Part shown: positions 38,600 to 62,537 of the stretch, in pieces
Numbering within the stretch: the stretch's first letter is position 1
Layout of the letters: the number at the start of each line of letters is the position of its first letter
DNA from: Eledone cirrhosa
Taxonomy: Eukaryota
DNA length: 64,000 nucleotides
Assembly: GCA_964016885.1 (NCBI GenBank)
Contig: OZ024741.1
Location: 105,152,001-105,216,000 of the forward strand
Direction: 5' to 3'
Notes under the pieces: model-generated
Told to the model about the DNA's origin: nothing
The model's database searches: none
Seen by the model: the letters and a program-made list of their open reading frames with translations, nothing else
Made by a program: the position numbers and the translations under genes

Positions 38600-39720
38600 G
38601 ACCGATCATTTTCAAAAAGCCAGTACAATGCGGTAGAAAAATACGAAGGGCAATGATAACAAATAAAACAGGTCATGTTTTACCCACTGTATTTCACTGT
38701 ATTATCCCTGTAATGATATTACAGAGCTAATGCCCTCTTTTCAAATGTGGGGCTGAAACGATTCAAAACAAACCGGACGATCGATGTGTTCTTCCTTAAC
38801 TGACATGTGTGTCGGTAATGCGCATGCGTAAAATCGTCATAGTAACCAGTCTCCCTCGTGCATTTCCGATCTATTATGTAAATGTGGTTCTTCCGGTTGA
38901 TGATATTGGCTTCTTTGATACTTAAATTGCCTATATTCCTTTCTATCACCTCTATGGTGACCACAAGGTCTTGGCTGAGGCAGCTGTCAAGATGTTTTTA
39001 AACAGAAGTTCTCGTCATCATGTGCTCCTTGATCCGTGTGTACAGCATCCGGACGGTACCTCCGATGCACAAGGAGTTACATTTTTACGTGGGATATTTT
39101 ACACCATATACGCTCTCATGTAAACTTCTATACTGTTGATGGGACAATTAGGAAGTGTTCACATATCGCTGTATGTGGGTTGGTGTCTCTGGAGCAGTCT
39201 CTTTAATGGGGTCCCGATGGTGTCAGCTGTATATTCAATCCCTCTCTACGGATTGCTTGTCTGATGGTAATTGTAGTTTTCTCATTGAAATGTGGCAGCT
39301 ATAGGTAACATATGTTATCTGTAGAAGCGCGTGTCCTCCTTGTTCTTTTAAGTGTTGCTACCTTAGCATTTCGGTGTTTAGTGAGAGAAGTAGGATTTCC
39401 GTTTTTGGTACCCTCATTGCATCTGTTACGTATCTGGGGGATCTCGTTTCTTATATAGGCCATTTTAGCTCTGCAGGGAAGAGCAAAATCATGGTGCACA
39501 AAAATGTCTCAGCAGGTATCCTTCATGTAAATTTGGTGCATATGGATCCCTCTTCTGTGACTCTTAGTGTAGTCAAACAGAAAGAGGGATCCAGTGGTGT
39601 TTTGGTGTTCAACCTCAAATTTCACGTTTATGTCTACGTCTTCGAAGATGCTGTAACTCTTAATGGCTTCTTCACTTGATGAAGTAAGGATATCATCCAC
39701 CTTCCTAGAAGAAGAACCAT
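38600..39720 (-). mobile_element. 5'-truncated, decayed Penelope/Poseidon-type PLE (RT C-terminus plus GIY-YIG); duplicated at 51368-52125
   Basis: VDDILT...VKFEVEHQN..GSL (39509-39700), HDFALP..AKMAYIRNE thumb, VYGVK...CIGGT.R.L.TRIKEH, and IKEANII (38719-38964). Confidence 0.8.
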
Positions 39721-42563
39721 TATATATATATATAATATATATATATATATATAATATATATATTATATATATATATATATATATAATATATATATATATA
39801 TATATATAATATATATATATATATAATATATATATATATATATATATAATATATATATATATATAATATATATATATATATAATATATATATTATATATA
39901 TATATAAATATATATATATATAATATATATATATATATAATATATATATTATATATATTATATATTATATATATATATATATATTATATATATATATATA
40001 TTATATATATATTATATATAATATATATATTATATATATATATATATTATATATATATTATATATAATATATATATTATATATATATATATATTATATAT
40101 ATATATATATTATGTATATATATATATATATATATTATATATATATATATATTATATATATATTATATATATATATATATTATATATATATATATATTAT
40201 GTATATATATATATATATATATATATTATATATATATATATATTATATATATATTATATATATATATATATTATATATATATATATATTATGTATATATA
40301 TATATATATATATATTATATATATATATATATTATATATATATTATATATATATATATATTATATATATATATATGATATATATATATATATATATTATA
40401 TATATATATATGTTATATATATATATAATATATATATTATATATATATATATATTATATATATATATTATATATATATATATTATATATATATATATATT
40501 ATATATATATATATTTATATATATATAATATATATATTATATATATAATATATATATTATATATATATATATATATTATATATATATATATATTATATAT
40601 ATATATATATTTATATATATATATATTTATATATATATATATATATTATATATATATATATATTATATATATATATATATTATATATATATATATATTTA
40701 TATATATATATATTTATATATATATATATAATATATATATTATATATATATATATATTATATATATATATATATTATATATATATATATAATATATTTAT
40801 ATATATTTATATATATATATATAATATATATATTATATATATATATATATTATATATATATATATATTATATATATATATTATATATATATATATATTAT
40901 ATATATATATGTATATATTATATATATATATATTATATATATATAGATATTATATGTATATATATATATTATATATATATATATTATATATATATATATA
41001 TTATATATGTATATTATATGTATATATATATTATATATATATATATATTATATGTATATATATATTATATGTATATATATATTATATATATATATATATT
41101 ATATGTATATATATTATATATATATATATATAGATATATTATGTATATATATATATTATATGTACATATATTATATATATATATATATAGATATATTATG
41201 TATATATATATATTATGTATATATATATATTATATATATATATATATTATATATATATATATATTATATATATATATTAGATATATATATATATATTATA
41301 TATATATATATATATATTATATATATATATATATATATTATATATATATATATATTATATATATATATATATTATATATATATATATATTATATATATAT
41401 ATTATATATATATATATAATATATATATATATATAATATATATATATATATAATATATATATATATATATATATAATATATATATATATATGTAATATAT
41501 ATATGTAATATATATATATATTATATATATATTTATAAAATATATATATATATATATTATATATATATATTATATATATATATTATATATATATATATAT
41601 ATATATATATATATATATATATATACATAATATATATATATATATATATATATATATATATATACATAATATATATATATATATATATATACATAATATA
41701 TATATATATATATATATATAATATATATATATATATAATATATATATATATATATATATAATATATATATATATATATATAATATATATATATATATATA
41801 TAATATATATATATATATATTATATATATATATATATTATATATATATATATATATATATATATATATATATATATATTATATATATATTATATATATAT
41901 ATATATATATATATATATATATATATATATTATATATATATATATTATATATATATATATATTATATATATATATATATATATATATTATATATATATAT
42001 ATATTATATATATATATATATTATATATATATATATATTATATATATATATATATATATATATTATATATATATATATATTATATATATATATATATATT
42101 ATATATATATATATATATTATATATATATATATATATTATATATATATATATTATATATATATATATTATATATATATGTATATATATTATATATATATA
42201 TGTATATATATTATATATATATGTATATATATTATATATATATATGTATATATTATATATATATGTATATATATTATATATATATATATATATTATATAT
42301 ATATATATATATTATATATATATGTATATATATTATATATATATATATATTATATATATATATATATATTATATATATATATTATATATATATATATATA
42401 TATATATTATATATATATATATATTATATATATATATATATATATATATATATATATATATATATATATATATATATATATATATATATATATATATATA
42501 TATATATATATATATATATATATTATATATATATATATATCTATATATATCTATATATATATA

Positions 42564-58160: not shown

Positions 58161-61100
58161 ATTATATATAATATATATATATATATAATATATATATATA
58201 TATATAATATTATATATATATATGTAATATATATATGTAATATATATATATATTATATATATATTTATAAAATATATATATATATATATTATATATATAT
58301 TATATATATATATATATATATATATATACATAATATATATATATATATATATATACATAATATATATATATATATATATATATATAATATATATATATAT
58401 ATATATATATATACATAATATATATATATATATATATATATATATATATATAATATATATATATATATATATATATATATATAATATATATATATATACA
58501 TAATATATATATATATATATATATATAATATATATATATATATAATATATATATATATATATATAATATATATATATATATATATTATATATATATATAT
58601 ATATTATATATATATATATATATATTATATATATATATATATATATATTATATATATATATATATATATATATATATATATATTATATATATATATATAT
58701 ATATATATATATTATATATATATATATATATATATTATATATATATATATATTATATATATATATATATTATATATATATATATATATAAATATTATATA
58801 TATATATATATTATATATATACATTATATATATATATATATATAAATATTATATATATATATATATTATATATATATATATATATAAATATTATATATAT
58901 ATATATATTATATATATACATTATATATATATATATATATAAATATTATATATATATATTATATATATATATTATATATATATATATATTATATATATAT
59001 ATATATATATTATATATATATGTATATATTATATATATATGTATATATATTATATATATATGTATATATATTATATATATATGTATATATTATATATATA
59101 TGTATATATTATATATATATGTATATATATTATATATATATGTATATATATTATATATATATATATATATTATATATATATGTATATATATTATATATAT
59201 ATATATATTATATATATATATATATTATATATATGTATATATATTATATATATATATATATATATATATATATATATATATATATATATATATATATATA
59301 TATAATATATATATATATTATATATATATATCTATATCTATATATATCTATATATATATGAATTATAAGAATCAAAGAACTGTTCAAAACATTTTCATGC
59401 TTACAACTGTTTCCTCCAAACCGAGGTTTGATTCTTCGGAGCAATTTATTATTGAATGAACACTTATATGACCTCCTTTTCACCCAAGAGACATACAGAT
59501 ACATATGCAAATATTGTGGGTCAACATTCATTACAGCATTTAGTGTGGCAGTACACATTTAGAGATTTCATTCATATTAGAAGATACAATCAAAAATACA
59601 GATTAAAATACAACATGAAATTAAGCGGTTATAGAGTGCAATGGTTATATGTGTGGCAAGCACGTGCGTCTTGTTTATATAGTGTGGCAGAGAGTTACGT
59701 GTAATAGAAGCACTTAAGCAGGTAATCAAGAGTGTTAAAGGGGTTGATCTGGTAATGAATTCCTTATATGATTGTTATAGCCTGTGTGTGGAGAAATAAT
59801 ATATGTATTAAAAATAATGTAAGCATTAAAAATATTGGAAATGCGTAGCGAAGCGATGATATGGATTTCATGCACTGCGACATTTTCATAGTCTGGGGAG
59901 CGTATTTTTCAGATTATATGCCGCTCACATAATTCACGACGATTCGATATTGGGCGTTTGACAATCCAGTTAGAGAATCGTAGTCTGATGTTCTTTAGCT
60001 CAATACAGGAGGATGTTACGTTGCGAGAATCGACATCTAAATATTACCCGGAAGTGTGTGTGTGGCTAAGGGGAGTTAATGCATGAGGGAGGTAACTCAG
60101 TGGTTTCTATTACTAACTATTAAATTGTGTCTCAAAATATTCCCTAACTTATATGGTTATGCGCAGTTTGTAAAAAATTTCTAAAAATTTAAAGTGTTTT
60201 AACTATAAAGTAGTCTATTAAGCTGTGCTGAAGGTGTTCTTTTTATGGTGATTAACCTCCATCGTAGAGAGCCACAAATGAATATTATACACGACGAGCG
60301 AGATTTCTAAATTAATGATCACTGTGATTGTAGTCTACTCAAAAATATAATATATATATATTATATATATATATATTTATATATATATATTAAATATATA
60401 TATATATATATATTATATATATATATTAAATATATATATATATATTATATATATATATATATATATTATATATATATATATATATTATATATATATATAT
60501 ATATATTATATATATATATATATATATATTATATATATATATATATATATATATATATATATATTATATATATATATTATATATATATATATTATATATA
60601 TATATATATTATATATATATATATATATAATATATATATTATATATATATATATATATATATAATATATATATATAAAATATATATATATTATATATATA
60701 TATATTATATATATATATTATATATATATATTATATATATATATTATATATATATATATATTATATATATCATATATATCATATATATTATATATATATA
60801 TATTATATATATCATATATATATATATATATATATATATATATATTATATATATTATATATATTATATATATATATATATATATATATATATATATATTA
60901 TATATATTATATATATATATATATATATATATATATATATATATATATATATATATATATATATATTATATATATTATATATATATATATATATATATAT
61001 ATATTATATATATTATATATATATATATATATATTATATATATATTATATATATATTATATATATATATATTATATATATATATATATATATATTATATA

Positions 61101-62537
61101 TATATATATATATATATATATATTATATATATATTATATATATATATATATTATATATATATATATATATTATATATATATATATATATATATATATTAT
61201 ATATATATATATATTATATATATATATATATATATATGATATATATATATATATATATGATATATATATATATATATATTATATATATATATATATATAA
61301 TATATATATATATATTATATATATATATATATTATATATATATATATATATAATATATATATATATATTATATATATATATATATTATATATATATATAT
61401 ATATATATATTATATATATTATATATATATATTATATATATATATATATATTATATATATATATATATAATATATATATATATATATAATATATATATAT
61501 ATAATATATATATATATATATATATATAATATATATATAATATATATATATATAATATATATATATATATATATAATATATATATATAATATATATAATA
61601 TATATATATATATATATATATATATAATATATATATATATATTATATAATATATATATATTATATGTATATATATATTATATATATATATATATATGTTA
61701 TATATATATATATATATATTATATATATATATTATATATATATATGTATATATTATATATATTATATATATATATATATATATATATATATATTATATAT
61801 ATATATATATATATATATATTATATATATTATTTATATATATATATATATATTATATATATTATATATATATATTATATATGTTATATATATATATATAT
61901 ATATTATATATATTATATATATATATATATATTATATATATATACATATATATATTATATATATATATATTAATATATTATATATATATATTATATATAT
62001 ATATATATATATTATATATACTCTTTTACTCTTTTACCTGTTTCAGCCATCCGGCTGAGCCATGCTGGGGCACCGCCCATATATATTATATATATATATA
62101 TATTATATATATATATATATATATTATATATATATATATTATATATATATATATTATATATATATATATATATATATATATATATATATATATATATATA
62201 TATATATATATATATATTATATATATATATGTATTATATGTATATATATATTATGCATATATATATATATATTATATATATATATATATATATATATATT
62301 ATATACATATATATATATTATATATATACATATATATTATATATATACATATATATTATATATATTATATATATATATTATATATATATATATATATATA
62401 TTATATATATATATACATTATATATATTATATATATATATATATATATATATATATATATATATATATATATATATATATATATATATATTATATATATC
62501 ATATATATAGAGATTATATATATTATATATATATATA

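Follow-up and report, generated by a model that had tools for sequence, protein, structure and literature searches.

Within a 64,000-nt stretch of the Eledone cirrhosa genome (assembly GCA_964016885.1, contig OZ024741.1, positions 105,152,001 to 105,216,000 of the forward strand; hereafter the window, numbered from its first base), a block of sequence is found on both sides of a 200-N scaffold gap (51168–51367), and each copy carries insertions of Penelope-like elements (PLEs) or a short interspersed nuclear element (SINE) that the other lacks. The question raised by this locus is whether the two copies are alleles or a genuine duplication, and what the copy-specific insertions say about transposition into (TA)n microsatellites. 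Our analysis suggests, with good though incomplete confidence, that the duplication consists of two alleles left uncollapsed across the gap and is therefore an assembly artefact. The sequence to the left of the gap is referred to as copy 1 and that to the right as copy 2.

Near-identical islands and collinear TA arrays

The window is AT-rich eukaryotic DNA (G+C 27 %), and strict (TA)6+ runs account for 21 % of it. Self-alignment with blastn paired 38963–40637 with 51368–53036 and 41324–45571 with 58158–62487. Two islands of non-repetitive sequence anchor this correspondence. Island 1 (38963–39720 in copy 1, 51368–52124 in copy 2) displayed three substitutions and three internal 1-bp indels, and island 2 (42564–43550 and 59359–60344) five substitutions and three internal 1-bp indels; one extra indel at the alignment end of each island is a boundary offset. 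Pooled divergence was 8 substitutions in 1,745 bp, or 0.46 % (95 % interval 0.20–0.90 %). All eight substitutions persisted after homopolymer compression, indicating that the copies represent different molecules rather than read errors. The near-identity of the islands claimed in the original prediction was thus borne out, with only scattered substitutions and indels and with copy-2 ends at 52124 and 60344. On the minus strand, island 1 carries what we take to be a decayed PLE-like reverse transcriptase (RT)/endonuclease remnant, a label given from motifs judged by eye and unconfirmed by Pfam (no match) or by a homologue search with the endonuclease-like frame (0 of 36 candidates). Its reading extends in copy 1 to the left of 38963, beyond the duplicated part. 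The 987-bp island 2 lies between TA arrays and contains no long open reading frame (ORF), only a weak, broken C2H2 finger remnant whose best Pfam match (zf-C2H2, E=0.003) was below the cut-off.

Any (TA)n sequence aligns to any other, so the arrays were compared via their imperfections, here termed landmarks. The imperfect array between the islands in copy 1 (A1, 39721–42563) was clearly collinear with copy 2, as had been predicted: 486 of the 535 40-mers unique in both copies occurred in the same order (at most 47 in 18 control pairings), and the landmark alignment scored 407 against 43 ± 7 for 12 shuffles (best 54). Among its 211 landmark columns, 162 were of the same type, 112 of those with exact run length, and 46 were gaps. 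Support was weaker in the next array (A2, 43551–45573), which is partly collinear with 60346–61660 and about 0.8 kb longer (56 of 107 40-mers; landmark score 44.6 versus 21.9 ± 2.9 shuffled), and its right part, 44734–45573, did not match 61660–62537 (100 of 100 shuffles scored as well). In the third array, which runs into the gap (A3, 49359–51167), the sole match to copy 2 was 49366–49710 with 61539–61746 (equalled in 0 of 100 shuffles); within it, six successive landmarks show near-identical spacing (49612–49671 and 61642–61698). The landmark comparison revealed no counterpart in the other copy for 49720–51167 or for 61746–62537. Collinearity therefore ends at 49710/61746 and not, as originally proposed, at 62537; the raw blastn block reaching 62487 was rejected as evidence for the longer extent since that alignment rides on TA low complexity. 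Pairing of 49720–51167 with 63635–64000 (2 of 60 shuffles as good) or with copy 2 reversed (10 of 60) was likewise unconvincing. Homologous spans can be demonstrated for 38963–49710 and 51368–61746, which share about 5.8–7.0 kb once inserts are removed, of which just 1.75 kb is not TA repeat. The unmatched copy-1 array also contains a landmark block of ~130–140 bp repeated in tandem (49930–50380), and block gains and losses of this kind distinguish the two copies throughout.

Copy-specific insertions and their empty sites

Three insertions were found to be specific to one copy at the positions originally claimed, namely the SINE and a palindromic PLE (PLE2) in copy 2 and a further PLE (PLE1) in copy 1. 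The SINE (189 bp, 53032–53220, plus strand) forms a clean filled/empty pair. It is flanked by 20-bp target-site duplications (53012–53031 and 53221–53240), and copy 1 retains a single 20-bp target within A1 (41000–41019, plus strand); in the 64 kb this string occurs solely at 41000, 53012 and 53221, i.e. once in copy 1 and twice in copy 2. Assignment to the tRNA-derived SINEs draws on seven other copies in the window, the 20-bp duplication and A- and B-box-like words recognized by eye; ARAGORN found no tRNA. Compared with the majority sequence of six further copies in the window, it diverges at 7 of 173 positions (4 %), and the five other copies with flanks read lie outside TA arrays. Its insertion would have proceeded by ordinary target-primed reverse transcription, as the 20-bp duplication suggests.

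PLE2 (53749–58165, minus strand) is a 4.4-kb palindromic element that encodes a linker and endonuclease only. Its entire 2.16-kb truncated body is mirrored around an 11-nt loop (arms 53835–55993 and 56005–58165), with an 86-nt tail (53749–53834) on one side. A hammerhead-like motif found with our own descriptor lies at 53873–53942 (minus strand), with its mirror at about 58057–58127 (plus strand). The arms displayed no differences over 1,458 homopolymer-compressed positions; uncompressed, they differed by 14 internal homopolymer indels and one run shift. The empty site lies in A1 near 41.43 kb (41411–41476), where four AA landmarks are present versus six around the filled site, and both flanks of PLE2 align to it in forward orientation (scores 127.7 and 61.9, each equalled in 0 of 60 shuffles). 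A 31-bp direct repeat with two landmarks flanks the element (53718–53748, plus strand, and 58163–58193) and is a probable target-site duplication of 19–31 bp, to be read with caution as the 31-bp string occurs 11 times in the window, 3–7 % of random array cut points give a like result and run lengths are off by 4 nt at two places.

PLE1 (45574–49358, minus strand) is a 3.8-kb, 5′-truncated element with an inverted copy of its 3′ end at its 5′ side. The inverted arm (390 bp, 48968–49358, plus strand) copies 45672–46061, with no differences over 271 homopolymer-compressed positions, and lacks the 98-nt tail (45574–45671, minus strand). Our descriptor placed a hammerhead-like type I motif at 45723–45777 (minus strand; mirror 49253–49307, plus strand). 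Both an RT with a YRDD motif and, C-terminally, a GIY-YIG endonuclease are encoded at 46926–48976 (minus strand), free of stops but with one frameshift at a C run (47982–47992). This frameshift may be a sequence error, given that the homopolymer indels between the PLE2 arms indicate an error-prone long-read consensus; selenocysteine recoding was rejected, the two frames having no in-frame stops. The corresponding empty site falls within 61259–61642 in copy 2, bracketed rather than placed to the base (left bracket equalled in 3 of 100 shuffles, right in 0 of 100). A candidate target duplication of 16 bp with one landmark could not be told from ordinary array sequence, and the flanks of PLE1 showed no mirror symmetry (17 of 60 shuffles as good).

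A fourth difference, a 58-bp fragment in copy 2 only (62021–62078, minus strand), is probably a 3′ terminus from a second SINE family, matching the end of another short element (27691–27719) at 24 of 29 nt (E=0.002). It is absent from copy 1 together with its recognizable flanks, and because collinearity stops at 49710/61746 no empty site can be demonstrated for it; its target duplication was indistinguishable from ordinary array sequence. The proposal of filled and empty alleles consequently holds for the SINE, with its exact 20-bp duplication, and for both PLEs, but not for this fragment, whose flanks are unmatched.

Alleles, tandem duplication, deletion or artefact

Copy 2 opens on the first base past the gap, mid-element and with no breakpoint signature, and copy 1 runs into the gap within a TA array, a geometry expected of overlap between a contig tail and a contig head. 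If so, the window would place one contig's tail, up to 51167, next to the head of the following one, starting at 51368. These contigs would overlap but stem from different haplotypes, such that the assembler would have left them unmerged and the scaffolder would have inserted a standard gap, producing a heterotype false duplication. The haplotypes would then differ by ~0.5 % substitutions, slippage-type gains and losses of (TA)n and at least three retroelement insertions. False duplications are most often gap-separated and mostly heterotype according to Ko et al. (2022, PMC9516828), who also use half read depth, discordant pairs and single-copy k-mers as criteria, and the locus resembles those described there in having adjacent near-identical copies on one scaffold, a gap between them (200 N) and copy-specific variants, here eight substitutions after compression and kilobase-size inserts with empty sites. 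Several points weigh against this interpretation. The case for allelism is one of geometry, and the last 1.45 kb of copy 1 and 61746–62537 are unmatched, so that a simple overlap would have to be supplemented by another TA change specific to one haplotype or by a contig end of poor quality. Three insertions per about 6–7 kb of shared sequence is a high density, the PLE1 empty site is bracketed only, with 3 of 100 shuffles as good on its left side, and Rfam and Pfam left the hammerheads and the PLE ORFs uncalled. The uncollapsed-haplotype proposal nevertheless stands as the best reading of the contig overlap, the 200-N gap, the mid-element start and the 0.46 % divergence, short of proof.

A true recent tandem duplication of at least 12 kb, with its junction hidden in the gap and each copy later receiving insertions of its own, would account for the direct and adjacent arrangement; 0.46 % divergence with copy-specific insertions suits a young duplication equally well, and the unmatched ends could fall outside the duplicated unit. 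We nonetheless regard it as improbable, since copy 2 begins exactly at the gap edge and mid-element, and insert differences of 3.8 and 4.4 kb should let long reads separate the copies, making a gap here unexpected. In Ko et al. (PMC9516828), such gaps were reportedly not observed at true duplications. It is unlikely that some of the empty sites are deletions, arising by slippage or by recombination between target duplications, in which case the polymorphism would not date activity. The arrays do often gain or lose landmark blocks (46 of 211 columns gapped), and the SINE is 4 % from the local majority. However, losing a 4.4-kb element with precisely one target copy left behind would call for an additional event, and the arms of PLE2 are identical while the flanking islands differ by 0.46 %, suggesting that PLE2 probably inserted after the two copies had split, barring homogenization of its arms by palindrome repair. 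We consider it very unlikely that the PLE2 palindrome is a fold-back (chimeric) long-read artefact rather than a genomic insertion. Assembly errors from chimeric palindromic reads are known (PMC9516828), the arms differ in homopolymer lengths alone, and the TA flanks mirror each other weakly (score 18.5, equalled in 0 of 60 shuffles). Yet in forward orientation these flanks match the empty site far more strongly (127.7 and 61.9), copy 1 holds no trace of PLE2, and the mirror ends at the ends of the element with an asymmetry of the 86-nt tail, as in three other elements of the window; palindromic junctions are also known for PLEs (Arkhipova et al. 2013, PMC3846280).

With the two copies read as alleles, about 10 kb of the assembly is probably counted twice here and should be purged, and repeat copy numbers and any tandem-duplication call at this locus would be inflated. 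Filled and empty alleles within a microsatellite are rarely readable; the imperfect TA landmarks permit it here, and the alleles point to currently polymorphic PLEs. Both PLEs appear young, given that their inverted arms are identical after homopolymer compression, and about 700 codons without a stop support recency; the arms of an older relative (8426–12378) differ in 23 of about 350 columns. The suggestion of very recent activity in (TA)n accordingly fits the two PLEs, with their identical arms, stop-free codons and TA position; for the SINE, 4 % from the local majority, recency is not demonstrated.

Hydra-clade features, integration and neighbouring elements

By motif set, compared by eye with Hydra-1_Obim and others, PLE1 and PLE2 fit the Hydra clade of PLEs described by Craig et al. 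(2021, PMC8557442), for which the marks given are a CxCx5C linker, CxxC and CxH motifs and the lack of CCHH. Both elements carry the CxCx5C linker in place of Cx2-5CxxC, together with CxxC..E and CxH near the C terminus and a single cysteine between the GIY- and YIG-like motifs, and both lack CCHH; the region of RWK and DKT was lost to 5′ truncation. In PLE1 the RT is followed by the C-terminal GIY-YIG endonuclease across the single frameshift, and TA arrays adjoin each element on either side. A homologue search with PLE1 retrieved 240 proteins at E<=0.001 among 2,750 candidates, and among the 120 of these listed, 120 had YRDD, 118 DK[TS], 103 CxCx5C and 90 RW[KR]; the best named homologue was an Argonauta protein (42 % identity). 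Together with the published octopus Hydra family and a resemblance of the SINEs, this points to a probable octopod cephalopod host. In the ESM Atlas, the top hit (0.97) was a mainly cnidarian cluster bearing PF26215, a family present on 38 % of its members. With about 35 % amino-acid identity and no blastn match, PLE1 and PLE2 represent separate families from each other. The alternative that they are Naiad elements, which also occupy (TA)n in octopus, was rejected on domain order, the endonuclease here being C-terminal; Naiad has an N-terminal endonuclease and no canonical hammerhead.

Our descriptor predicted a hammerhead core with stems in both elements; its ten hits in the window fall without exception into five inverted pairs, of which PLE1 and PLE2 account for two. 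Rfam called no hammerhead at these motifs of either element. Among the 150 listed of 339 Rfam matches over the whole window, there was microRNA and low-complexity noise, one weak viral-untranslated region (UTR) match and two sub-threshold HH9 matches. Pfam had no match for the PLE ORFs in a scan of six ORFs, a second scan of eight proteins gave weak matches only, and a PDB profile search gave none. The Hydra elements of PMC8557442 (including Hydra-1_Obim) agree with the present ones in the YRDD RT with C-terminal GIY-YIG, the linker, CxxC/CxH and insertion into (TA)n, and their hammerhead near the 3′ end may correspond to the hammerhead-like motifs predicted here. In File S1 of that paper, 26 of 27 Hydra families (one of them from Octopus bimaculoides) have a (TA)n preference, and an inverted 5′-truncated copy similar to those seen here is noted for Penelope-13_HM. 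Targeting of (TA)n is thus already published for the clade, the elements behave as described, and the kinds of known element are unchanged by these findings. Small new points are tails of 86–102 nt opening at a conserved ACTC/GAGT motif, versus the 30–40-bp tails that are typical of PLEs in general along with inverted 5′ copies (PMC8557442), and a target site that is tentatively measurable (about 31 bp), where the duplications of Naiad and Chlamys in microsatellites are often indiscernible (same source).

The TA position, truncation, inversion, one-sided tail and empty sites are observed: each PLE has its full 3′ end on one side, and its truncated 5′ end bears an inverted 3′ copy minus the tail. 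By analogy with other PLEs, the GIY-YIG endonuclease would nick (TA)n and the RT would prime on the nick; the 5′-truncated cDNA would then fold back and self-prime, or join a second cDNA begun on the other strand about 90–100 nt inside the 3′ end. Either route would yield an inverted arm without the tail, and staggered nicks the target duplication. The 11-nt loop of PLE2 favours fold-back self-priming, and the 2.9-kb spacer of PLE1 is compatible with fold-back as well as with microhomology-based joining of two cDNAs. In Adineta vaga (PMC3846280), junctions with palindromes were interpreted as self-priming, and an 8-bp duplication was confirmed from empty alleles; tails there are 31 bp and duplications 8–10 bp, whereas PLE2 mirrors its whole 2.16-kb body. 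The Poseidon PAc protein cuts both strands of AT-rich DNA, and two RT start sites bound its tail (Frangieh et al. 2024, PMC11167929), which would explain the one-sided tail here; that system is in vitro and of another clade, and its sites lie inside the ORF, whereas the tails here have no visible ORF start.

Tails of the four Hydra-type inverted insertions in the window (4621–5021, 8426–12480, PLE1 and PLE2) measured 87, 102, 98 and 86 nt, respectively. All four have ACTCC at tail position 5 or 6 and GAGTG 16–36 nt on, and this motif sits 104–112 nt after the hammerhead core. The pattern, defined post hoc, had 13 hits versus 2.95 ± 1.7 in 40 shuffles (maximum 6), though the hits are not independent as several are mirror copies. 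Folding was weak (z −1.4 to −2.1), the minimum-energy fold showing the stem clearly only in 12366–12482. A GCTC/GAGC version stands directly before a Hydra-type ORF start (35256–35294). In the PMC8557442 supplement, GCTC...GAGC-ACT was recognized by eye in Hydra-1_Ajap (5′ end) and in Hydra-2_Ajap and Hydra-2_Amil (near the 3′ ends), and GCCC...GGGC-ACT in Hydra-1_Crog (5′ end); no motif was seen in the displayed ends of Hydra-1_Obim. The literature searched, which covered part of this supplement and left most subscription papers and Repbase reports outside, contained no description of the motif. The fuller reading, which we consider possible rather than probable, is that Hydra-clade PLEs are transposing now in this animal, with two independent families polymorphic in one TA array of a few kilobases, and integrate in a clade-specific manner with a ~31-bp (TA)n duplication and an RT boundary at a conserved RCYC...GRGY-RST stem-loop 104–112 nt past the hammerhead core that gives tails of 86–102 nt. 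On this reading the tail would be where the element's 5′ UTR begins, given that two published Hydra consensus sequences open with the same motif. PLE1-like families would be candidates for an in vitro system for the Hydra clade, and the tail boundary makes the two-start-site model testable in concrete terms beyond Poseidon.

Other elements of the window were also noted. The insertions at 4621–5021 and 8426–12480 carry hammerhead-like motifs, and the latter a decayed RT-endonuclease ORF (plus strand). Units of 310 bp, 99.8 % identical and arranged partly in tandem and partly inverted, form arrays set in TA sequence at 19641–21185 and 32243–34709, the second being a palindrome with a 12-nt centre (32.2–34.7 kb); each unit has a hammerhead-like core, and the arrays resemble non-LTR retrozymes or PLE derivatives of a non-autonomous kind (cf. 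bioRxiv 10.64898/2026.07.22.740005). An inverted, partly tandem element in TA (29389–30537) spans the two sub-threshold HH9 matches (29594–29665, minus; 30190–30261, plus). The 5′ end of a Hydra-type ORF with an RWR motif lies at 35079–35530 (ATG at about 35291); before it, its 5′ UTR is repeated in inverted form, up to a TA array met at the very point where the ATG would start. The C-terminal end of another Hydra-type endonuclease, its left side cut by a TA array, lies at 62538–62720 (plus strand). Inverted-repeat elements by TA runs were present at 16593–17674, 18888–19079 and 21712–21917 (218-bp arms at 99 %; short palindromes). At 904–3240, long (TGG)n and (ATC)n arrays have open frames on several strands and are probably simple repeats, and a non-LTR RT fragment at 24281–24970 gave the sole Pfam match among the six ORFs (RVT_1, E=6e-9).

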